In this document: positions 22,370 through 37,394 of the stretch, in pieces
Numbering within the stretch: the first letter of the stretch is position 1
How the letters are laid out: each line of letters opens with the position of its first letter
From: a virus
Taxonomy: Duplodnaviria; Caudoviricetes
Length of the DNA stretch: 54,530 bases
Strand: one strand, 5' to 3'
IMG/VR virus record: IMGVR_UViG_3300012943_000039
Span: 1 to 54,530 of that record
Program-made: the position numbers and the translations under genes
The notes under the pieces: generated by a model
What the model was told of the DNA's origin: nothing
What the model saw: only the letters and a program-made list of their open reading frames with translations
The model's database searches: none

Positions 22370-22620
22370 ACGCGTTCAAGAAGCTCACTGCAAAGCAGCA
22401 CGTCGCCGCACTGCGCAGCACAGCAGATCGCTACATGCGCGGCATGATGGCGTTCAGCACCTTCAATCGGCACATGCGCTATCTGTGGGCACGTGTCGAG
22501 CAGTCTCCAGCGATGAAGCGGCGCGTTTGCGCGCTGCTTCGTCAGACACAGTTCGTCGAGTCGTCAACGACCGCTCCTGCCGTTGAGAAGCGTCTCATCT
22601 TGATTGGAGGCGCGCGTTGA
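22366..22620 (+). CDS. Early hypothetical protein
   Basis: ATGA overlap; 84 aa. Confidence 0.55.
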   Translation: MNAFKKLTAKQHVAALRSTADRYMRGMMAFSTFNRHMRYLWARVEQSPAMKRRVCALLRQTQFVESSTTAPAVEKRLILIGGAR

Positions 22621-23768
22621 TTCCCAACCTTCATCCTGACGACTTGCTCTTCTTCAACGAAGTCGTTGCCGCTATGCGCGCTGTCGCGAAGAGGTATCAG
22701 CTTCCGTTGCGCAACATCACTGCGGCGCACATGCCAGAAAAAGGCATGAACGACTTCCTAGGTCGCTGCTTCGTCTCAGGCGACATAGAGCTTGTCATGC
22801 GCGCGACTGTCGACGGTCAATTCTGCGAAGCGCCACGGTCCCCAGAACGCGTCTGGCAGACAGCTGCTCATGAGCTTGCGCATCTCAAGCACATGAACCA
22901 CGGTCCCGCGTTTCATGAGTTCTTCGCGGAACTGACAGTTGCGCTCGACAACCACCGCAAGCCCGACCACAAAGCACGCATCATCGACAAACTCGTCAAG
23001 CTGCAGAAAGCGCGTCAAGGCGAGGCAGATCTCGGCAACACAGAAGCGGCGGAAGCGTTCGCAGCTGCAATCAATCGCATGTTGATTGAGAACGAACTCA
23101 AGCCCAGCGATCTCGACTACGCGCGAGGCGCTGACGACGATCCGATTATCGAGATGCCGGTTGACTTGTCGAAGTATGCTATCGACACGAAGAAGTGCCG
23201 TGTTGCGTGGCAAGAGTCGCTGGCGCGCATCGTCGCAAAAGCGCACCTGTGCTCGTTCTTGCTGCGTCCTGGCAGTAACAAGATCTGGTTCGTCGGCACG
23301 CGCAGTCATGCGCTCGTCGCTGAATACGTCTATGGGACGATTGTCCCAGCTGCGAACAAGATGAGCATCAAGGAGAAGTACCGGTACGGTGCCGAGTGTT
23401 TCAAGCGCGACGGTCATTGGAAGGGCGTCAACGGATTTCGCGAAGCGTGGCTTGACTCGTTTACGCGTCGTATCGCAGAGCGTTTCGACGAAGCACGCGC
23501 CGCCGCTGTCAAGCTCGTCGATGAGACGTTGCCTGTCGGCAGCGAGTCGACAGCGATGATTCGACTCGACGGCGCGCTGACGCGCGTAACTGCCTACATC
23601 GATGAGAAGTTCAGGCATCGTCGCGGATCAGCGTCACCACTGCGCAACGGTCGTAGCACGAACAGCGCAGGTCACGAGCGCGGACGCGCTGCCGCAAACG
23701 CGATGACGTTGGGACGTCGAGCGATGACAGCTGCCGCGTCACGCGGCGCACTGGGGCCCAAGTCGTGA
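22617..23768 (+). CDS. HExxH metallopeptidase-like domain fused to a DUF2786-like domain
   Basis: AHELAHLKHMNHGPAF, then IIDKLVKL...EAEAFAAAINRMLIEN and C-terminal GHERGRAAA. Confidence 0.7.
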   Translation: MIPNLHPDDLLFFNEVVAAMRAVAKRYQLPLRNITAAHMPEKGMNDFLGRCFVSGDIELVMRATVDGQFCEAPRSPERVWQTAAHELAHLKHMNHGPAFHEFFAELTVALDNHRKPDHKARIIDKLVKLQKARQGEADLGNTEAAEAFAAAINRMLIENELKPSDLDYARGADDDPIIEMPVDLSKYAIDTKKCRVAWQESLARIVAKAHLCSFLLRPGSNKIWFVGTRSHALVAEYVYGTIVPAANKMSIKEKYRYGAECFKRDGHWKGVNGFREAWLDSFTRRIAERFDEARAAAVKLVDETLPVGSESTAMIRLDGALTRVTAYIDEKFRHRRGSASPLRNGRSTNSAGHERGRAAANAMTLGRRAMTAAASRGALGPKS

Positions 23769-27226: not shown

Positions 27227-27523
27227 GTGTTTCACTGCGCCGTCTGCGCGAAGAGCGTAGACAACTGCTCGTGTCCTGACATCGACGAGAAGCTAAAAGC
27301 CGCTTCAAACAGTCGACACGTCGCGGTTAAATGGTGCCGCTTTTGCGACAAGCATTACGCGCGTTGCAAGTGCGCTGAACCAGATTTCTACGTGCGTTCA
27401 GGCGGCGAAGAATTGCCCATGCCGCCTGGCGGGTTCAAGATGCTCGACGGCAGCACGTTCGTTGTAGAGACGAAACATCACAAGGACCCTGATGCTCCCC
27501 GCTCCCGTGATCGAACACATTGA
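27227..27523 (+). CDS. Cys-rich (double Zn-finger) protein
   Basis: CAVC...CSC...CRFC..H..CKC. Confidence 0.6.
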   Translation: MFHCAVCAKSVDNCSCPDIDEKLKAASNSRHVAVKWCRFCDKHYARCKCAEPDFYVRSGGEELPMPPGGFKMLDGSTFVVETKHHKDPDAPRSRDRTH

Positions 27524-28181
27524 AGGACTATACGTCGTCCGCGACGACTTGATCTCAGGCGGTACGAAGCGACGTGCGATACCGGTATTCTTCGACGAGC
27601 ATGAAGAATACGTCTACGCAAGTCCTGTCTTCGGCGCCGCTCAGATCGCGTTGGGCCATACTGCGCGCGAACACGGCAAGCGCGCCACGATCTTCTGTGC
27701 GAAGCGTAGCGTATGGGCGCCGATGACTCGCGCTGCAGCTGACGCCGGCGCGAAGATTATTGAAGTCGATTTCGGCATGTTGAGCAACGTCACGGCTCGC
27801 GCTCGCGACTACTGCGCGCAGAGCGGCGCGAAGCTCCTGCCGTTCGGGCTCGACGCTGAAGAGTTCATCGAAGCACTCGCGAACGTCGCGCGAGCGATGG
27901 AGATCGAGCCTGAAGAAGTCTGGAGCATCACGAGTAGCGGTACGCTGACTCGCGCGCTGCAGCGAGCCTGGCCGTCCGCGCGCTTTCATGGCGTCGTCGT
28001 CGGTCATCATCCTGGCGCAGGTGCGGGCACTGCTGAACTCCATTTTGCTCCAGAAAAGTTTGACAAGGCGGCGCGTTTCCCGCCGCCGTTCCCGTCGATG
28101 CCTCAGTTCGATGCCAAGGCATGGCAGTTCGTGAAAGAACACGCGACACCTGGTGCGCTGTTCTGGAATGTGAGTGCGTGA
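27492..28181 (+). CDS. PLP-dependent enzyme, fold type II (ACC deaminase / D-cysteine desulfhydrase-like)
   Basis: VVRDDLISGGTKRR (Schiff-base Lys), SITSSGT phosphate-binding loop, FDAKAW and LFWNV motifs. Confidence 0.8.
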   Translation: MLPAPVIEHIEGLYVVRDDLISGGTKRRAIPVFFDEHEEYVYASPVFGAAQIALGHTAREHGKRATIFCAKRSVWAPMTRAAADAGAKIIEVDFGMLSNVTARARDYCAQSGAKLLPFGLDAEEFIEALANVARAMEIEPEEVWSITSSGTLTRALQRAWPSARFHGVVVGHHPGAGAGTAELHFAPEKFDKAARFPPPFPSMPQFDAKAWQFVKEHATPGALFWNVSA

Positions 28182-29116
28182 TGTCCAATCAAATCGGGTG
28201 CGTCTATTTCATCGGTAGCCCGTGCGGAGGATTCATCAAGATTGGTTATTCTGATGATAACGTGCCGCAGTCGCGCTATAAGTCGCATCGCAAAAAGGGT
28301 GACGCTAATGGCGCGATACACGTTCAGCTGACGACGGCTCTTTGCCACGTCGCTGGAATCTTCAAAGAGGAGCAATCGATACATCGGTACTTCGATCATC
28401 TCAGAGTGCCTGAGTTGAAAGAGACGTTCCGCGCCGATCCTGAATTACTCCGTTACATCGTGTGGCTCAGATCACAATGGCACGCTCGACGAGATCAGGC
28501 CGGCACAGATGTCCCTGACGTCGAGCGTTTTGAGAAGTGGGGACCGACTCCAGATCGCTGCAGTCATGAGTATTTCATTGATCGCGATCTGTTGAGTGAT
28601 GACGTATGGGGACTGCCTACCCCTACGAAACGACCGGCGAAAGAAGGATGGATTCCTCCTGCGCAATATATCGAAGTCGCAACGAAGACTTTCGGAGTAA
28701 TCGATCTTGACCCAGACTCGTTCGCTGCTCGTAATCGAGAGATCGCAGCAACGAACTATTACGATTGCGGATTGCGCTGTCTGCAGATGCCTTGGTACGG
28801 CAAAGTCTGGATGTATCCAACGTCGAACCACGAGCAGATGCTAGATCACGCTGTCTTGCAACTTGACAGCAACGTCAAAGAATTGATCGTTCTCCTCGAC
28901 GTCGATAAGTTCAACGCTCAATACATGTACCGCATTATGCGTAGAGTAGACCGCATGTGCGTCATATGGGCGAAGGTTGAATGGCCAGGTCGTCCTGAAA
29001 ACAAAAAGGACGGCGTGAGCCCGCGTCACGGATATTTCTTGCTGTATTTCGGCGCTAACGCTGAACTGTTTGACAGACATGCGTCAGTCATCGGTACGGT
29101 ATGGAAACCGTCATGA
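28181..29116 (+). CDS. GIY-YIG (T5orf172-like) domain fused to a degenerate phage Dam-like methyltransferase domain
   Basis: N-terminal GCVYFI...IKIGYS...E.SIHRYF..LRV...ETF; C-terminal WIPP...IDLDPDS...PWYGKVWMYPTS (NPPY replaced)...LLYFG. Confidence 0.65.
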   Translation: MSNQIGCVYFIGSPCGGFIKIGYSDDNVPQSRYKSHRKKGDANGAIHVQLTTALCHVAGIFKEEQSIHRYFDHLRVPELKETFRADPELLRYIVWLRSQWHARRDQAGTDVPDVERFEKWGPTPDRCSHEYFIDRDLLSDDVWGLPTPTKRPAKEGWIPPAQYIEVATKTFGVIDLDPDSFAARNREIAATNYYDCGLRCLQMPWYGKVWMYPTSNHEQMLDHAVLQLDSNVKELIVLLDVDKFNAQYMYRIMRRVDRMCVIWAKVEWPGRPENKKDGVSPRHGYFLLYFGANAELFDRHASVIGTVWKPS

Positions 29117-29385
29117 CCTGCCCTGAATGCAACGGCCGCGGCATCTCGTATGTCGACGAGCGCACAGGCGAACACGACCATATGAACGCGCACTTGTGCG
29201 GTAAGTGTTCAGGCACAGGACGCGTGCCGAGCTTGCTGCTCGACTCAGACCCGGTCGTCTGCAATCGCTGTCACGTCATCGTCAATCCGAATGGCGACAA
29301 GCGTAGTCACGAACTCGCAGAGACGACGACGCACAACGACGCGAAGAGAACCTTTCTCGTCATCAAATGCCCGCAGGACAAATAA
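29113..29385 (+). CDS. Small Zn-finger protein (CxxCxGxG repeats)
   Basis: CPECNGRG...CGKCSGTG...CNRC. Confidence 0.6.
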   Translation: MTCPECNGRGISYVDERTGEHDHMNAHLCGKCSGTGRVPSLLLDSDPVVCNRCHVIVNPNGDKRSHELAETTTHNDAKRTFLVIKCPQDK

Positions 29386-29387
29386 CG

Positions 29388-29702
29388 ATGAATAAACGTC
29401 GGACAGAACTCTACCGCGCAGCTGCCGTGCGATTTGCGCAAGGTCAGAAAGAACAAGTCAGCGTCGAGAATCACGCCAGCGTCCATCCGATGACGGATGG
29501 CGCGTTCGTCGAGTTGACGCTATTCGTGCCGTTCCGGGAGATCTTGGGAGATCTCATCCGTCGAGCGTCACAAGACGTCATCTGCGACACGTGCAAGAAG
29601 CCTTACGGCGAACACAAGATGTTGACTGACGCCGAATACCTCAGTCACGATCAACAGCCGTACCTCCACGAACTCTGTAACGGAGATATCGTCAAGCTGT
29701 GA
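29388..29702 (+). CDS. Hypothetical protein
   Basis: RASQDVICDTCKKPYGEH...LHELCNGDIVKL; GTGA overlap with the polymerase gene. Confidence 0.6.
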   Translation: MNKRRTELYRAAAVRFAQGQKEQVSVENHASVHPMTDGAFVELTLFVPFREILGDLIRRASQDVICDTCKKPYGEHKMLTDAEYLSHDQQPYLHELCNGDIVKL

Positions 29703-32700
29703 CCGATATCATCAATCTCAACACTGACGTCAATCTGTTTGGCGACGAGATCACAGACGCGCCAAGCATCGACAGGGAGCCTCTAGCGGCCGCGCTCTAT
29801 GCGCAGCTGAAGGGCGTTTCTCTGCAAGAGTTCGTGTCTTACTTCACGAACGGCTTTGAAGCCGTCGTCGATTACGCGAACCTTGTTGCAGGCGAGAAGA
29901 CAGGACAGCGTATCTCGCTGCTGTTCAATCCGCATCGACTCGACACAGGTACGAAGCGATTCCCGATCAGCTTGTATCAGGCGTTGAAGGATGAGAAGTT
30001 CGTCCGTGGGCTTGCGCGCGTCGTGTTGCTGAACAAGAAGAAAGGCAACACGAAAGATCTCCTGTATGCGTCTGTCGGCATGGGAGTGCAAGGCACGTCA
30101 TACGTGCAAGAGTTCCCGCCGCACGTCGCACGCGATCTCGCGCTTGAATACGGACTGACGAAGAACTGCCACGTTTTGGACCCGTGCGCCGGTTGGGGCG
30201 GACGTATGCTCGGATTCAGCGCGGTCGTCAATCACTACACGTGTTGCGAGCCGAGCACTCGGACGGCTGCAGGGCTCCGCAAGATTCACGACTTCATCAG
30301 GTCATTCCGCAGTTCGTTTCACGCGACGATCAATGAAGCGCCGTTCGAAGACGTCACGCTGCCGTCAGAGGCATTCGACTTCGCGATGACCAGTCCGCCT
30401 TACTACGATACTGAGTGGTACGCGCCTGGCGAGAAGACGAGCAGCGGCAATCGCTATCCGACTTTCGAGGCGTGGTGCGAGGGCTTTTACGCGCCGCTGA
30501 TTCATCGCACGATGGCGGCGCTCAAGCCCGGCGCTGTCTTCGTAATCAACATCGGCAGTCGTCTTTACCCGTTGAATGATCGTCTGTTCGCGATCTGCAA
30601 AGACAAGTACCACGTTCAGAAACAACAAGGCAGACTGAGCGCGAGTAACGGTCTCGGCAAGACGGGCGAGGGCGAAACGTTCTATGAAGTGCGCAAGTCG
30701 GGAACCTACGTGCTCCCTGAAGAGACGAGCGAGGCGGGCCCTGCTGACATGCCGGCTGCTCAGTCGCTCGCAGCTGAAGAGCAGACAGAAGCAGTCGACT
30801 CGTCGACTGACATCGACTTCCCGCCCGTCCTAGACGAGACTGAGCCGTCAGAAGAGCCCGTCAAGGTACCGACACCGGCGGTTACAATTCCGTCAGCCAT
30901 GGACTTCGCCATGGCGCCGCGCTCGCTCGCTGAGCAGCTGAGCGAGACTGCGCCCGCACCTGTCGTCGAGGCGGCGCCTGTCGTCGAGCAGACGGCAATC
31001 AAGCTGACGCCTCATGAAGTCGTCGAGCGTCTACGCGCGACCGATCATCTGCTGTTCGATAGACGCGGCAAGCTCGTCGTCACGCACGGCAGCACACTGA
31101 CTGACGAAGAACGCGAGTTGATTAAAGAGCACAAGCCCGCGTTGCTCGTCATCGTGCCGCCGTTCCCGGAACCTGAGGCGACGCCCGCACAGTCGCTCGT
31201 TCAGTTCTTAGGCGAGCAGCGACGTCCTGAACCTGAATGGAAGCCCGAAGCACCGCCAATCCTGGATGGCATCAATGAGATTGAAATGGACTTCGAATCG
31301 GACGGCAAAGACTGGGCCGCAGGTGATCGTCCGATTGGTGTGGCGCTTCGTTGGCGCGAACCGGGCGCGCAGTTTGCGCGCACGAAGTATTTTCCCTGGG
31401 GACATATCGGGTCTCCTGACAACCTCGACGAGAATGTCATGCGTCGATGGTTCGAAGAGCAAGTCAAAGGTAAGCGCATCACAAACGCTTACACGGGTTT
31501 TGAAGTTCACATGGCGAGGGAATGGGGTGTCGATCTTGTTGAGCGTGGTAACACGTTCAGCGACGTCATGCACTACGCCGCTCTTCTCGACGATCATCGT
31601 AAGCGATTCGCGCTGAACGAACTCTGTAAGGACTTCCTCAATCGCGAGAAAGAGGGAATGGATCTCGACCCGCGACGTATGGCGCATTACACGCCGTATG
31701 AAGTCGCGATACGCGCTGAAGGTGACGTCGACTCTGTTGGCGAACTGCGCGCTGTCATGTGGCCTCAGATTGAAGCTGAAGGCCTCCAAGCTGTCAGCAG
31801 ACTTGAAGACGAGATTATTCCAGTCGTCTGCGAGATGGAGAAGAACGGCGCGCCTATCAACGAAGAACTCCTAGCGACGATGACGCGCGACTTGCAAGCG
31901 CATTACGAGTCGCTGATCCGTGAAGTCTCGCACGAAGCCGGCTTCAACTTCGATGACACGGACGCCGCTTGGCAACGACTCTTCGAACGCTTCAATCTGC
32001 CACTCGTTCGCACGAAGGGCAAGAACGGCGAGCAGGGCAAGATCTCGTTCAAGGACGCGATACTCGCACGCATCGAACATCCGACGATCAAGAAAGCGCG
32101 ATTTGCCGCGCAGCTTGACTCGTTGAACAGCAAAGTATTCAAGCCGTATCCGTCGCTCATTCGTAACGGCGTGCTTCGATTTCAGCTTCATCAGCTGCGC
32201 ATCGACGACGATCAGGGCAAACGCGGCACTGTGTCAGGGCGTTTCTCTGCGCCCTACATTCAGCAGGTGCCGAATCACTACAACCACGCTGAGATCTTCG
32301 GAGAGAAGTATTTCCCGCGCGAACTCTACATCCCGGGGTCCGGTCTGTTCCTCGCCGGCGATGCGATGCAAATCGAATACCGCATCTTTGCTGACAAGGC
32401 GAAGAATGCGCGCGTGTTAGAAGCGTATCGAAAAGATCCGGCGATGAGCTTTCACAAGTTCATGTTCGGCATCATCTCGCCATTCAAGCCTGACTTGCTC
32501 TATACCGGGATGAAGAACTTCAACTTCATGCGCATGTATGGCGGCGGACTCGTCAAGACCGCCGTGATGATGAACTTCATCACAGAAGAAGAGGGCGACG
32601 AGATCACGGCAGCTGAGTCGCAGCGCACAGACCCGCGGCTGACGCAAGCGCGAGAGATCGACGCGATTTACGCGCGTGAGATGCCCGAAGTCAAGCCGCT

Positions 32701-33103
32701 GCTCAAGCGTGCCATGCACATTGGGCACCCGCCCGAGTGCGACAAGTTCTGCCGACTTGGCGACGAGTTGCACCAGAAATACAAACATCGCGGATACGTC
32801 AAGACTGCGCTCGGACGTCGCAGCCGTTTCCCGACGACATTCAAACTTCACAAGGCGTTGAACACGGTCATTCAAGGTACGGCAGCTGACATCATGAAAT
32901 CGAAATTAGTCGACCTTTACAAGCAGCGTAAAGAAGTCGGCTTCACGATGCGAATGACCATCCACGATGAAATCTGCGGCGACGTCCCCGACAAAGACGC
33001 AGCTGAGCGCGTCAGTAAGCTGCTGAACGAGCAGACGTCAGGACTTGAAGTGCCGATCTTGTGGGAAGTCGGCACAGGCGCGAACTGGGCTGAGGCAAAG
33101 TAA
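29699..33103 (+). CDS. DNA amino-methyltransferase / family A DNA polymerase fusion (1134 aa)
   Basis: MTase motifs LDPCAGWGGR and TSPPYY; acidic Pro-rich linker; exonuclease DFESD; polymerase GTVSGRFS, DAMQIEYR (A), KNFNFMRMYG (B), NTVIQGTAAD, TIHDE (C). Confidence 0.9.
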   Translation: MTDIINLNTDVNLFGDEITDAPSIDREPLAAALYAQLKGVSLQEFVSYFTNGFEAVVDYANLVAGEKTGQRISLLFNPHRLDTGTKRFPISLYQALKDEKFVRGLARVVLLNKKKGNTKDLLYASVGMGVQGTSYVQEFPPHVARDLALEYGLTKNCHVLDPCAGWGGRMLGFSAVVNHYTCCEPSTRTAAGLRKIHDFIRSFRSSFHATINEAPFEDVTLPSEAFDFAMTSPPYYDTEWYAPGEKTSSGNRYPTFEAWCEGFYAPLIHRTMAALKPGAVFVINIGSRLYPLNDRLFAICKDKYHVQKQQGRLSASNGLGKTGEGETFYEVRKSGTYVLPEETSEAGPADMPAAQSLAAEEQTEAVDSSTDIDFPPVLDETEPSEEPVKVPTPAVTIPSAMDFAMAPRSLAEQLSETAPAPVVEAAPVVEQTAIKLTPHEVVERLRATDHLLFDRRGKLVVTHGSTLTDEERELIKEHKPALLVIVPPFPEPEATPAQSLVQFLGEQRRPEPEWKPEAPPILDGINEIEMDFESDGKDWAAGDRPIGVALRWREPGAQFARTKYFPWGHIGSPDNLDENVMRRWFEEQVKGKRITNAYTGFEVHMAREWGVDLVERGNTFSDVMHYAALLDDHRKRFALNELCKDFLNREKEGMDLDPRRMAHYTPYEVAIRAEGDVDSVGELRAVMWPQIEAEGLQAVSRLEDEIIPVVCEMEKNGAPINEELLATMTRDLQAHYESLIREVSHEAGFNFDDTDAAWQRLFERFNLPLVRTKGKNGEQGKISFKDAILARIEHPTIKKARFAAQLDSLNSKVFKPYPSLIRNGVLRFQLHQLRIDDDQGKRGTVSGRFSAPYIQQVPNHYNHAEIFGEKYFPRELYIPGSGLFLAGDAMQIEYRIFADKAKNARVLEAYRKDPAMSFHKFMFGIISPFKPDLLYTGMKNFNFMRMYGGGLVKTAVMMNFITEEEGDEITAAESQRTDPRLTQAREIDAIYAREMPEVKPLLKRAMHIGHPPECDKFCRLGDELHQKYKHRGYVKTALGRRSRFPTTFKLHKALNTVIQGTAADIMKSKLVDLYKQRKEVGFTMRMTIHDEICGDVPDKDAAERVSKLLNEQTSGLEVPILWEVGTGANWAEAK

Positions 33104-33189
33104 TGACACCAATTCACTACGCGTATATTGTCGGCATCGCAATCGGGTTTTTCGCCGGCTGGCTGTCACATAAGATGTTCGGGAGGTGA
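33103..33189 (+). CDS. Small membrane peptide (28 aa)
   Basis: TAATG coupling; MTPIHYAYIVGIAIGFFAGWLSHKMFGR. Confidence 0.45.
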   Translation: MTPIHYAYIVGIAIGFFAGWLSHKMFGR

Positions 33190-33193
33190 CGCG

Positions 33194-33631
33194 TTGGGAA
33201 TAACGCGGGTTCAGAAGCGTGAAGCACAGCTAAAGCTCCATCTGTTTCACGAGATCAGTCTTTACGGGAAGACGCTTGAAGTGACGTCGATTCAAGACGT
33301 GCGGAAGCCCGGTACGCCTGACTTCACGCTGAGCGGACACGGCAAGACGCACTGGTGGGAGTTGAAGCACGGTACGCCGAATTTCACGACGTATGAACTG
33401 CAAGAGATCAAGTGCTGTCGACTCGCGCGAACGAGCTTCTGTCGGTACTTGATTTACGTCGATGAACCAGGCAAGCGATACGCGCTCGTGCTTCATCCTC
33501 AGCTTGTTTTCGAGAAAGGCGGCAAGCTCGCAGACATCGACGTATCTCAAGCTGACTACCGAGTCGACGATCACAACCACGGGTTACTGGCGCATTACAT
33601 GAGGACTCTGCTCCATGAACATATCGATTAG
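33194..33631 (+). CDS. PD-(D/E)xK nuclease (VRR-NUC / Holliday junction resolvase-like)
   Basis: PGTPD...WWELK...Q motif; TTG start after GGAGG. Confidence 0.7.
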   Translation: MGITRVQKREAQLKLHLFHEISLYGKTLEVTSIQDVRKPGTPDFTLSGHGKTHWWELKHGTPNFTTYELQEIKCCRLARTSFCRYLIYVDEPGKRYALVLHPQLVFEKGGKLADIDVSQADYRVDDHNHGLLAHYMRTLLHEHID

Positions 33632-34688
33632 CGCGTCCGGTCTTGCCGCCGCGCTGCGCTCGCTTGAGAAAGTCACGCCCGCAAAAGCGGTGCTGCCGAT
33701 CTTGTCGCACGTGCTGATTGATGGCAGCGACGGTCAAGCTACGCTTTCGTGTACCGATACGGAACTGAGCTTGACTCGCACGCTGAATGCGCAGATCGAA
33801 AAGGTCGGACGTGTCGCGCTGCCTGCTAAGCCGCTGCTCGATATCGTCTCGCAGATCACTGAACCTGACGTTCATATCATCGTCGAGAAGAACGCCGCGC
33901 GCATCGCTGCAGGTCAGTTCAAGTTGCGTATGCAAGCGATGTCAGCTGACGAGTTCCCGAATATCGTCACGCACGCTGACAAGGGCGTGTTGCTGAACGG
34001 CGCGACGTTTCGCAGCCTCATTCGTCGCGTGCGTCCATGTATCAGCGCGACAGAGAAGCGGTACAACATCGCAGGCGCGCTGCTCGTCATGTCAGACAAA
34101 GTGACGGCTGTCGTCACGACTGACGGCAAGCGTCTCGCGATCTCGACTCAGCCCGCAGTCGGCGCAGTTGAGCAGTCAATCATCCTGCCAACGCGTTTGA
34201 TTGACACGCTCATTCAAGACGACGCAGAGGATTACTCGTTCTCTGTCAGCGACAACCATATCTTCTTCGCTTCGGAGCAAGCGATCTTGTCATCGCGGAT
34301 GCTCAGTGAAGACAAGTTCCCAAACTATCAGCGCATCATTCCGCAAGACAACAAGAACATCGTCACGATTCAGCGCGACTTGTTTCTTGCTGCGTTGAAG
34401 CGCGTATCGCTCGTCGCGAACGAGGGACGCGGCATCACCTACAACGTCGCCGGCACAGTCATGACGATGCAAGCGCGCAGCGTCGAGCTTGGCGAAGCGA
34501 CTGAGAATCTCGCCGTCACGTATACCGGTGAGCCGACACAGGTGACGTTGCACGCGACAGCCGTCACGGATTTTCTGGAAGCGGCTCGGAACCCGTCAAT
34601 CACCATCGCGATTGGCGGGCCTAACGCAGCTGTGCTCTTCAACGATGGCGCTGACTTCTTGACAGTCGCCATGTCGATGCGAGCATGA
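33615..34688 (+). CDS. dnaN: DNA polymerase III beta sliding clamp
   Basis: 357 aa; PILSHVLI, TDTELS, ADEFP, TTDGKRLA, FPNYQRIIP, ALKRVS motifs. Confidence 0.92.
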   Translation: MNISISASGLAAALRSLEKVTPAKAVLPILSHVLIDGSDGQATLSCTDTELSLTRTLNAQIEKVGRVALPAKPLLDIVSQITEPDVHIIVEKNAARIAAGQFKLRMQAMSADEFPNIVTHADKGVLLNGATFRSLIRRVRPCISATEKRYNIAGALLVMSDKVTAVVTTDGKRLAISTQPAVGAVEQSIILPTRLIDTLIQDDAEDYSFSVSDNHIFFASEQAILSSRMLSEDKFPNYQRIIPQDNKNIVTIQRDLFLAALKRVSLVANEGRGITYNVAGTVMTMQARSVELGEATENLAVTYTGEPTQVTLHATAVTDFLEAARNPSITIAIGGPNAAVLFNDGADFLTVAMSMRA

Positions 34689-35215
34689 GCGAGCGTTACC
34701 GAGTGATGACGGCCGATATCCCGTGGCCGTTTAGAGACGCGCTGCCTGGTGAAGGTCGAGGCGCGGTGAAGCATTACGACCTGATGACGATGCGAGACAT
34801 CAGGAGCTTCCCGCTACCGCCGATGTTCAACGACAGTATTCTGTTCTTGTGGCGTGTCGCGTCGATGCAACAAGAGGCGCTTGACGTGCTCGACGCGTGG
34901 GATTTTGAACTCAAGAGCGAGATCGTCTGGAAGAAGACGACGCGCAACGGCAAGCGCGCGTTCGGCATGGGCCGTATCGTGCGCGCTGAACATGAGACGT
35001 GTCTCATTGCGACGAGCGGCCGACCAGATATCAAGACTCATAGCGTGCGCTCGATATTCGAGGCGCCTGTGGGACGTCACTCAGAGAAGCCGGAAGAGTT
35101 TTATCGAATTGTCGAGTCGTTGAGCGCAGGACCTTACGTCGAGTTGTTCGCACGTAGACAGCGCGCCGGCTGGACATGTCTCGGGAAGGAAGCACATGGC
35201 GAAGTCCGCACGTGA
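34685..35215 (+). CDS. MT-A70 family adenine methyltransferase
   Basis: ADIPW (DPPW variant), LFLW, GMG...R..HE.CL, HSEKPEEFY, ELFAR...GW. Confidence 0.88.
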   Translation: MSERYRVMTADIPWPFRDALPGEGRGAVKHYDLMTMRDIRSFPLPPMFNDSILFLWRVASMQQEALDVLDAWDFELKSEIVWKKTTRNGKRAFGMGRIVRAEHETCLIATSGRPDIKTHSVRSIFEAPVGRHSEKPEEFYRIVESLSAGPYVELFARRQRAGWTCLGKEAHGEVRT

Positions 35216-36252: not shown

Positions 36253-36600
36253 GTGAAATTCCAGATCACGGGCGGCGAGTTTCTACGACATGCGCTGAAG
36301 GAGACAGCGAAAGACATGAAGAAGCGAATCAAGAAAAACATGGAGATTCAGCTGCGTATCAACCCGCCCATCATTGACAGGCGTGAAGCTGTCAATCATC
36401 CACGACACTACGGCGGCGCTGACAATCCGTATGAAGCAATCAAGGTCATCGAAGCATGGGACCTGGGTTTTTGTCTCGGCAGCGTCGTCAAATACATCTG
36501 TCGTCACGGCAAGAAAGCCAAGAGCGCACCGATCGAAGACTTGAAGAAAGCGCGTTGGTATCTCGACCGTGAGATTCGACGTCGGGAGGGAACACTGTGA
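36253..36600 (+). CDS. DUF3310 (T7 gp1.7-like nucleotide kinase family)
   Basis: VNHPRHY..EAIKVIE...FCLGSVVKYICR.GKK...EDLKKARWYL. Confidence 0.85.
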   Translation: MKFQITGGEFLRHALKETAKDMKKRIKKNMEIQLRINPPIIDRREAVNHPRHYGGADNPYEAIKVIEAWDLGFCLGSVVKYICRHGKKAKSAPIEDLKKARWYLDREIRRREGTL

Positions 36601-37394
36601 TACCAGTTCTCGATCAAGGCCATGTTCGTCTCGTCAAGCATGACGGGAGCGAAGAAGACATCATCAGGGCGGCGCGTCAAAGCACAAGCGGCGCGTTCAA
36701 GGGCTGGGGCCCGTTCCCGTGTCCTGAATGCGTCGAGGTAGGCAAGCCGTCGAAAGAGGAGTATCAGGGTCCCGGCTCGCTGACTGCGCCTGAATACGTC
36801 AACGTCTGCAAGCGTTGTAAGGGCGAAGGGACAATCGCCGGTGATGAAGGACTCCTTCGTCGTCTCTACAAAGATCATCACATGTCGCCGTTTGAAATGC
36901 TCGACGCGACTTTTGAGATCAAGGCGCCGATCTTCGTCTTTCGTGAGTGGCATCGTCATCGGACGCAGAGCTACAACGAAATGTCCGGCCGCTATGTCGT
37001 GCTGCCGGATGAATACTACATGCCGAGCGTCGAGCGTCTGAGCATCGCGAAGCAGTCAGCGACGAACAAACAGGGCGGCGGCGAGGGTTTGACGTCTGCT
37101 GAAATCGTCGTCATTCAAAGCGCGATGAGCGCCGCTTACAAAAACTCACGTGAGTTCTACGACGGGCTGATCTCACTCGGCGTTGAACGCGGCGTTGCAC
37201 GCTCCGTGCTCCCTGTCGCGCAGTATTCGCAAATGTGGGCCAAGGCGAACTTGCGAAACTGGCTGCAGTTCTTGACGCTGCGCAACGACAGCGCGGCGCA
37301 GTGGGAGATCAGGCAATACGCTATTGCCGTCGAGAAGATTCTTGCCGACCTATTCCCAAACACAATGGCGCTTTACAAGGAAGGACGCTCGTGA
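36597..37394 (+). CDS. thyX: Flavin-dependent thymidylate synthase
   Basis: HMSPFE, PIFV.REWHRHRTQSYNEMSGRY (RHRx7S), AR.VLP, NLRNW..FL.LR...AQWEIR. Confidence 0.95.
   Translation: MIPVLDQGHVRLVKHDGSEEDIIRAARQSTSGAFKGWGPFPCPECVEVGKPSKEEYQGPGSLTAPEYVNVCKRCKGEGTIAGDEGLLRRLYKDHHMSPFEMLDATFEIKAPIFVFREWHRHRTQSYNEMSGRYVVLPDEYYMPSVERLSIAKQSATNKQGGGEGLTSAEIVVIQSAMSAAYKNSREFYDGLISLGVERGVARSVLPVAQYSQMWAKANLRNWLQFLTLRNDSAAQWEIRQYAIAVEKILADLFPNTMALYKEGRS

Follow-up and report, generated by a model that had tools for sequence, protein, structure and literature searches.

The window analysed here, all 54,530 bp of IMG/VR record IMGVR_UViG_3300012943_000039, is a complete viral genome with direct terminal repeats. 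On its plus strand lie the genes of P0001, a minimal fold-II pyridoxal phosphate (PLP) enzyme, and of P0002, in which a class-I S-adenosylmethionine (AdoMet)-dependent methyltransferase-like domain is fused to a family A DNA polymerase (PolA). Relatives of P0001 are adjacent to, fused with or inserted into methyltransferases bearing the motif [S/C]PPY, and in other phages an AdoMet decarboxylase (AdoMetDC) stands beside such a methyltransferase. Our favoured reading, held tentatively and at a little short of an even chance, is that P0001 and its polymerase-fused partner turn AdoMet into a 3-aminopropyl (or aminocarboxypropyl) mark, placed on an exocyclic amine of a base at the replication fork. 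Its extension to the whole group, in which phage [S/C]PPY..E.Y methyltransferases would transfer aminopropyl or aminocarboxypropyl to DNA, with either a PLP enzyme resembling gp52 of phage M6 or a pyruvoyl AdoMetDC supplying the substrate or completing the product, is a possibility that we rate as doubtful.

The PLP protein and its methyltransferase partners

P0001 (229 amino acids, aa; 27492..28181, plus strand) is a fold-II PLP protein, as a preliminary description of this DNA had read it. The protein matches PHROG 7093 at 2.3e-33, with aa 12-228 covering profile positions 17-278 of 279, and has no Pfam match at E<=0.01, PF00291 included; PF00291 is present in many of its relatives and in M6 gp52. 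The AlphaFold2 (AF2) model, based on an alignment (A1) of 28 P0001 relatives, has a predicted local distance difference test (pLDDT) score of 94. Its top Foldseek matches are D-cysteine desulfhydrase (E 1e-10) and threonine deaminases, and its comparison with the homologue of 1-aminocyclopropane-1-carboxylate (ACC) deaminase 1j0a gives a TMq of 0.84. P0001 is ~100 residues shorter than the solved fold-II enzymes, and the family has 0 matches among PDB sequences even at E<=10, by sequence or profile search. K26 (codon 27567-27569), in the motif VVRDDLxxGGTKRR, is the lysine predicted to form the Schiff base and aligns with K51 of E. coli DcyD. It is invariant in 28/28 aligned relatives, and so are 49 other columns, in relatives that are 56-74% identical to P0001.

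The PLP family is essentially viral and phage-restricted. It comprises 1,351 proteins of 125-401 aa at E<=1e-3, among 2,620 candidates, and has 351 confirmed matches in IMG/VR. Only 13 matches were found among genomes of 185,579 species, all of them in metagenome-assembled genome (MAG) records, and viral proteins make up 65-100% of the nearest ESM Atlas clusters.

The characterized relatives come from phages M6 and ViI. As described in the accessible part of Lee et al. (NAR 2021, PMC8989533), purified M6 gp52 and ViI gp226 are PLP-binding enzymes that remove the carboxyl group from C-alpha-glycinyl-thymine and O-serinyl-thymine in polymeric DNA; they act once the amino acid is attached, and gp226 was modelled on 1j0a. 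M6 gp52 matches PHROG 7093 at 2.2e-159 and PF00291 at 39.5 bits. The hhalign comparison of A1 with gp52 gave Prob 90.4 and E 1.4e-6 over 209 columns, with K26 aligned to the lysine in an SFSK stretch of gp52; we take this lysine, whose residue number was not counted, to be the K36 named in PMC8989533. By tblastn, gp52 recovers the PLP gene in 28 of 80 related loci. Because PHROG 7093 is shared, the profiles match and the lysines align, P0001 is, as judged by sequence comparison, a distant member of the family with proven decarboxylation of DNA-borne amino acids. A role of the PLP enzyme as a lyase of AdoMet or S-adenosylhomocysteine (AdoHcy) was considered and dropped, as the proven decarboxylase M6 gp52 belongs to PF00291/PHROG 7093.

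The 5-hydroxymethyldeoxyuridine (5-hmdU) pathway is absent from the window. The preliminary description had listed no hmdU synthase, hmU-DNA kinase or amino acid:DNA transferase (ADDT), and this is borne out, with 0 matches in the window for each of PF00303, PF18723 (HMUDK_hel) and PF18724 (ADDT). As a positive control, PF18723 and PF18724 match phage M6 at 1.4e-57 and 2.3e-48. Both have 0 matches in the complete PLP-carrying genomes of Erythrobacter phage R6L and Microcystis phage Mae-JY30, and M6 gp51, gp53, gp54 and gp58 found no counterpart by tblastn in the 80 related loci (931 kb) or the window.

What does accompany the PLP gene is a methyltransferase. We inspected the best 80 of the 351 IMG/VR loci together with the window (81 loci), and found the PLP gene fused to the methyltransferase-linked cluster in 9, adjacent to it in 45 and within 4 genes of it in 16, with no such partner in the remaining 11. 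Hence, an [S/C]PPY partner is fused, adjacent or <=4 genes away in 70/81 PLP loci. Among the 71 neighbour or fusion proteins, PF01555 (N6_N4_Mtase) matches 54 at E<=0.001, ParB_N 8 and DNA_pol_A 4. The motif CPPY.DLE.YS occurs in 41 of them and TSPPY[YF][DN].E.Y in 19, and the 11 with neither motif have no match in ten cases and a spurious one in the other. Apart from methyltransferases, the 81 loci show no metabolic enzyme that turns up repeatedly around the PLP gene; what does return there are genes for terminase, portal, helicase and SbcC-like proteins and for a weak HD-like protein. In 13 of the PLP loci with an SPPY partner (within L055-L083), a 238-aa protein is encoded 2-3 genes away (e.g. 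L056:12297-13013), which belongs to PHROG 5889 and has a weak HD-domain match (E 0.0025).

The two domains are also joined in single polypeptides. The longer PLP proteins include 49 fusions, 37 of them with PF01555 on record. In 32/49 fusions the PLP domain is inserted in the methyltransferase between motif I/II and motif III/IV, the insertion point being after motif I/II (ILDPFAGGSVRG...GVDLRPEQ) and 30-45 residues ahead of ...GDS...FSCPPYGDLEVYSD. In tandem fusions, the PLP domain follows a complete methyltransferase in 5-6 cases and precedes one in 1. Cultured phages with insertion fusions are Erythrobacter phages R6L (vB_EliS_R6L; gp1) and ZS04 (gp7); gp70 of Pseudanabaena phage Pam4 is an 829-aa methyltransferase-PLP fusion, and in Microcystis phage Mae-JY30 the PLP and methyltransferase genes are adjacent. 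R6L gp1 is called just a CcrM-like methylase in the accessible part of its genome paper (PMC5463345). Two methyltransferase(-PLP) proteins, P0124 (1129 aa) and P0219 (1560 aa), carry intein or LAGLIDADG homing-endonuclease domains (PF14528, PF03161). A gene resembling 3'-phosphoadenosine 5'-phosphosulfate (PAPS) reductase lies ~5 genes upstream of the methyltransferase-PLP fusion in R6L (L001, 5389-6432) and ZS04 (L084, 1-939); a sulfur/PAPS-reductase link was rejected, the gene being absent from the window.

The polymerase fusion and the AdoMet decarboxylase loci

In the window, the methyltransferase-like domain is part of the polymerase. P0002 is a single open reading frame (ORF) of 1134 aa (29699..33103, plus strand), which substantiates the methyltransferase-PolA fusion named in the preliminary description. 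Its N-terminal helical subdomain (aa 1-135, 29699..30103) was delimited by alignment and the AF2 model and carries the motif SLLFNPHRL; the motif region is conserved in 25/25 relatives with P78 and R80 invariant, and the subdomain may serve in DNA or target recognition. The class-I SAM-dependent amino-methyltransferase-like core follows (aa 136-345, 30104..30733), assigned by AF2, Foldseek and motifs. Motif I, DPCAGWGGR, occupies aa 161-169 (nucleotides, nt, 30179-30205) and motif IV, TSPPYY, aa 231-236 (nt 30389-30406), and both are invariant in 25/25 sequences of an alignment (A3) of the relatives of this domain. The AF2 model of aa 1-345, with a pLDDT of 89, consists of the helical subdomain and a class-I methyltransferase core, and its top Foldseek matches are M subunits of type I restriction-modification systems, Trm11 and other class-I methyltransferases. 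An acidic Pro/Ala-rich linker (aa 346-520, 30734..31258), read from the sequence and from the drop of pLDDT at the domain end, is 44-47% identical in close relatives vs 64-70% for the polymerase part. The family A DNA polymerase (aa 521-1134, 31259..33103) matches PF00476 at 6.1e-33 over aa 724-1132 (114.7 bits vs a cut-off of 34.3) and PHROG 17 at 6.4e-57 over aa 522-1133. All these segments are on the plus strand.

The methyltransferase domain matches Pfam weakly. It reaches PF01555 only at E 0.012 (16 bits, below the 26.7 cut-off), a six-frame search of the genome with PF01555 gave 0 matches at E<=0.1, and the domain profile weakly matches the N4-cytosine methyltransferase 8s9n (E 0.001) in permuted motif order. 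Its family has 3,951 representatives at E<=1e-3, mostly stand-alone proteins of ~320-345 aa or C-terminal domains of ~480-aa proteins; among the best 150 domain relatives, only P0171 and P0172 are fused N-terminally to PolA. As the window contains no other [S/C]PPY, PF01555 or ParB gene, nor a PAPS-reductase gene, the polymerase-borne domain is the sole family-typical partner of P0001 in this genome.

The polymerase fusion defines a lineage. The order PLP gene, 0-3 small variable genes, methyltransferase::PolA is found in the window and in L004, L005, L007, L008 and L016; the fusions of L004, L005 and L008 (which ends at the contig end) are of the SPPY type, and those of L007 and L016 of the CPPY type. 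The polymerases of the window, L004, L005, L007 and L016 are 49-70% identical. Over 614 residues, those from L007 and L016 share 49% identity with the window polymerase, with methyltransferase domains that are barely alignable. In a quick maximum-likelihood tree (IQ-TREE) of 70 PLP proteins, the PLP proteins of the six fusion loci form one clade (SH-aLRT 99), and the deepest split (97) separates a clade with all SPPY partners from one with mostly CPPY partners. Another relative, P0189 (971 aa), carries the methyltransferase at its C-terminus (aa 626-948) together with a weak sub-threshold family-B polymerase match, and may be a second kind of polymerase-methyltransferase fusion.

A tblastn search with a CPPY enzyme led to Croceibacter phage P2559S, where the neighbouring slot is taken by a different decarboxylase. 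P2559S gp66 has a CPPY methyltransferase core and PF01555, preceded by an N-terminus that reads as ParB-like and is not confirmed by Pfam. It overlaps by 38 nt with gp67, a small pyruvoyl-type AdoMet_dc protein (PF02675, 2e-19, 70 bits); the pair lies at 3365-5006 of L257. Relatives of gp67 in IMG/VR number 94 confirmed matches, of which the best 80 loci (L259-L338), picked by decarboxylase likeness, were examined. A CPPY enzyme lies directly upstream of the AdoMetDC on the same strand in 73/80 loci, separated by -34 to +53 nt in 68 of them, and the linkage persists down to 49% decarboxylase identity. None of these 80 loci has a PLP gene. The AdoMetDC-CPPY methyltransferase pair seems to be undescribed.

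Proposed chemistry and its alternatives

In the reading that we favour, P0001 would serve an [S/C]PPY amino-methyltransferase module as its dedicated partner; in this phage the module would be residues 1-345 of the PolA fusion, held on a flexible linker of ~175 residues. Since the module is tethered to the replicative PolA, the modification enzyme would travel with the replisome. The two enzymes would be physically coupled. The transferred group would be a decarboxylated one derived from AdoMet, because two non-homologous decarboxylases couple to one methyltransferase-fold family; the chemistry common to the PLP family and the pyruvoyl AdoMetDC would be decarboxylation of the amino-acid end of AdoMet, whose methionine moiety would be the sole alpha-amino acid in methyltransferase chemistry. 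The most likely product would be a 3-aminopropyl group on an exocyclic base amine (N6 of adenine, N4 of cytosine or N2 of guanine), and the steps may run in either of two orders. In route a, AdoMet would be converted to decarboxylated AdoMet (dcAdoMet), from which the methyltransferase-fold domain would transfer aminopropyl, like spermidine synthase. In route b, 3-amino-3-carboxypropyl would be placed onto the base and then decarboxylated on DNA, as M6 gp52 does with glycinyl-thymine. A supply of dcAdoMet would account for the decarboxylase being optional, many hosts making dcAdoMet themselves. The preliminary description had suggested that a transferred aminocarboxypropyl group is decarboxylated (+57, aminopropyl) or deaminated. 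The first part is favoured by the gp52 homology and by AdoMetDC in 73/80 loci; deamination has no specific support.

Several observations weigh against this reading. P0001 is only ~25-27% identical to gp52. Foldseek places the methyltransferase domain among ordinary methyltransferases, with the aminopropyltransferase BpsA just at ranks 14 and 17 and a root mean square deviation >18 Å. The AdoMetDC loci were sampled by decarboxylase likeness, and a single unmixed clade (FastTree support 0.999) holds all 44 of their distinct methyltransferase cores, so that the link may be a single evolutionary event. In the literature, we found no measured product for any member of the [S/C]PPY..E.Y subfamily. 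Each methyltransferase type has >550 viral loci, and a PLP gene was looked for within 10 kb: among TSPPYYDTE-type loci, 3/80 have a strong and a further 2/80 a weak PLP match, leaving 75-77/80 without one, and among new loci from the CPPY alignment the gene is present in 23/75 and absent from 52/75. The co-occurrence test proposed in the preliminary description is therefore positive when the PLP gene is the starting point (70/81 loci, 49 fusions), and the co-occurrence is weak when the methyltransferase is (3-5/80 TSPPY-type, 23/75 CPPY-type loci). All conserved motifs are common to the CPPY cores that go with a PLP gene (60) and to those that do not (25), 0/239 columns discriminate between them (maximum Jensen-Shannon divergence, JS, 0.39), and PLP presence or absence changes 18 times on the CPPY tree vs a shuffled mean of 22, almost at random. 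As the cores are indistinguishable, the methyltransferase chemistry should be the same with or without PLP, by default methyl transfer. The idea that the Cys of CPPY marks a PLP-specific subtype was rejected, as CPPY enzymes occur with and without PLP and their cores are indistinguishable.

A serious rival, which we consider unlikely, is ordinary methylation, in which the [S/C]PPY domain makes N4-methylcytosine (m4C) or N6-methyladenine (m6A) at replication and the decarboxylases act on free AdoMet or AdoHcy for another end. That end could be AdoMet depletion against AdoMet-dependent host restriction or BREX, the clearing of a product inhibitor, or dcAdoMet as a private cofactor or for DNA-condensing polyamines. 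The SPPY/CPPY motif and the fold are indeed typical of amino-methyltransferases, most members of the family have no decarboxylase nearby, the core is the same either way, and the accessory gene is freely gained and lost. AdoMetDC is moreover a known stand-alone auxiliary gene of cyanophages, matched in 142 phage records, mostly of Synechococcus or Prochlorococcus phages. Yet depleting AdoMet beside or inside the phage's own AdoMet-dependent enzyme would be self-defeating, and in 32/49 fusions the PLP domain lies within the methyltransferase fold. Genes of the PLP family keep company with a single methyltransferase superfamily and show no link to MT-A70 or Dam-type genes present in the same genomes. 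The relative with proven activity works on DNA rather than on free metabolites (PMC8989533).

A second alternative, which we regard as quite improbable, keeps the hypermodification and changes its source. The methyltransferase-like domain would merely flip or mark the base, e.g. by a methylation elaborated later, and the PLP enzyme would decarboxylate a free amino acid attached by an unrecognised step, or carry out beta-replacement with it; extra enzymes (oxygenase, GNAT) would join in other phages. Fold-II enzymes classically perform beta-replacements, which counts in its favour. The same holds for the gp52-type enzymes of M6 and ViI, which act after amino-acid attachment (PMC8989533, accessible part). 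The gene neighbourhoods speak otherwise: no enzyme other than methyltransferases returns around the PLP gene across the 81 loci, the window is without oxygenase, ADDT or kinase, and the replacement by AdoMetDC would be left unexplained.

It is very improbable that the PLP protein is unrelated to DNA, as a threonine/serine dehydratase, cysteine desulfhydrase or inert scaffold that sits near the methyltransferase through shared expression timing only, since the amino-acid deaminases and desulfhydrases among its closest solved structures and the PHROGs label 'threonine dehydratase' are offset by three independent fusion architectures (including insertion into the methyltransferase fold), the restriction of the family to phages, the invariance of the lysine and 49 columns among relatives 56-74% identical to P0001, and the origin of that label in M6 gp52, itself a DNA-acting decarboxylase.

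Neighbouring genes, implications and comparison with known systems

The PLP gene and the polymerase fusion lie in a packed ORF run on the plus strand (27.2-35.5 kb) with overlaps of 4-61 nt and gaps <=24 nt, in agreement with the tight operon of the preliminary description; the 7.7-kb region has no blastn match among cultured phages. The intervening gene at 28121..29116 (plus strand, 331 aa) is variable. The GIY-YIG/Dam-like fusion proposed for it is weaker than claimed, as its GIY-YIG-like (MUG113) N-terminus scores 22.2 bits against a Pfam cut-off of 22.3 and its degenerate Dam-like C-terminus 25.1 against 28.1. The catalytic tetrapeptide of the Dam family is NPPY, and the protein reads YPTS at this site; its methyltransferase fold has probably lost activity or taken on another role. 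Also between the PLP gene and the polymerase, a 94-aa protein at 29101-29385 has a DnaJ-type CXXCXGXG zinc-finger pattern (28.4 bits vs a 32.7 cut-off, sub-threshold) and is not conserved in relatives.

Downstream of P0002, the putative nuclease (33128..33631, plus strand) has no match in Pfam, PHROGs or NCBIfam and shows a PD..ExK-like pattern by eye only, so the earlier nuclease call is likewise weaker than claimed. The DnaN-type sliding clamp (33615..34688, plus strand), with PF00712, PF02767 and PF02768 all above cut-offs, and the MT-A70 family methyltransferase (34685..35215, plus strand; PF05063, 7.8e-22), of the ordinary m6A type, were both called correctly, and so was an ordinary ThyX (36597..37394; PF02511, 7.9e-45). 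ThyX is one of several genes further downstream, together with an MmcB-like protein and SNF2 and UvrD helicases. NCBIfam has no match for P0001, the methyltransferase domain, the Dam-like protein, the putative nuclease or MT-A70. Elsewhere, just past a strand switch near 21.7 kb, the plus-strand early region opens with a protein of 383 aa (22617-23768) that matches DUF7168 and, weakly, WLM/YgjP-like metallopeptidases.

The preliminary description had counted the GIY-YIG/Dam-like gene, the putative nuclease, the clamp and MT-A70 as parts of the locus. They are not conserved partners of the PLP gene, having homologues in only 0-4/80 PLP loci: the 28121-29116 protein in 0/80, MT-A70 in 1/80 and the clamp in 3/80, all of the polymerase-fusion lineage. 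The clamp is part of the replication module and stands outside the conserved PLP-methyltransferase pair.

To our knowledge, all known amino-acid-derived phage DNA hypermodifications begin with 5-hydroxymethyl-pyrimidines. If the favoured reading is true, a route by AdoMet and the methyltransferase fold would give phages a second way into DNA hypermodification, independent of the first and directed at exocyclic amines. It would be very common in environmental phages (>1,351 PLP proteins and >550 viral loci per methyltransferase type), and the DNA of thousands of them would contain a cationic N-(3-aminopropyl) purine or cytosine that is as yet undescribed. In the polymerase-welded lineage the mark would be written at the fork, and such a physical attachment of a base-modifying enzyme to a replicase would be rare. 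'DNA methylase' annotations in phage genomes would need another reading, the restriction resistance of carrier phages would be explained, and new enzymes for site-directed DNA aminoalkylation would be at hand. Cultured carriers for a direct test are R6L, ZS04, Mae-JY30, Pam4 and P2559S. New here are the gp52 homology, the insertion architecture, the two-way counts, the polymerase-tethered lineage and the replacement by AdoMetDC. In the literature covered, supplements not included, there was no paper on the methyltransferase-PLP pair; nor did we find one with CPPY and methyltransferase, on aminopropyl or aminocarboxypropyl DNA in phages, or on Microcystis phage Mae-JY30.

Among known systems, the closest are M6 gp52 and ViI gp226, which are likewise phage-encoded members of PHROG 7093 on a fold-II scaffold closest to 1j0a, with the lysine aligned; M6 gp52 and A1 further share the C-terminal signature PFP[SC]..YD.KAW...FWN. 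P0001 differs from M6 gp52 in being ~50 residues shorter and ~25-27% identical. The partners differ as well: in M6 and ViI they are a dUMP hydroxymethylase, a 5-hmdU DNA kinase, ADDT and a radical-SAM isomerase, all absent in the window, whereas the partners of the P0001 family are [S/C]PPY methyltransferase-like proteins, often fused or inserted, unlike the gp52 type of M6 and ViI. Cationic amine side chains recur in known phage thymidine hypermodifications, as described in the accessible parts of PMC8989533 and PMC13458397.

The methyltransferases themselves resemble the orphan and ParB-fused PF01555 methyltransferases of phages in their class-I fold, motif I DPxxGxG and motif IV [S/C]PPY, in the frequent ParB N-domain, and in their site at the end of the early genes just ahead of the terminase. 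Unlike PF01555 methyltransferases, they have the motif order I then IV, a circular permutation of the PF01555 profile, and a Cys or Ser before PPY that is followed by a conserved acidic D.E.YS stretch. They also differ in having a recurrent decarboxylase partner and, in the window, in the fusion of the domain to PolA.

For the proposed transfer, two cellular systems offer a comparison. The tRNA aminocarboxypropyl transferase TYW2 and the methyltransferase Trm5 share one fold, and TYW2 is the precedent for a methyltransferase fold that transfers the 3-amino-3-carboxypropyl of AdoMet in place of methyl; it differs in that its substrate is tRNA and no decarboxylation step comes afterwards. Polyamine synthesis pairs AdoMet decarboxylase with an aminopropyltransferase, spermidine synthase. 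The phage loci resemble this pair in placing an AdoMet decarboxylase beside a class-I methyltransferase-fold enzyme, as in the translational coupling to the CPPY enzyme in 73/80 loci. They would differ from it in that a DNA base, in place of putrescine, would receive the group, and in that the decarboxylase of the window would be a PLP-dependent fold-II enzyme, not a pyruvoyl-dependent one.

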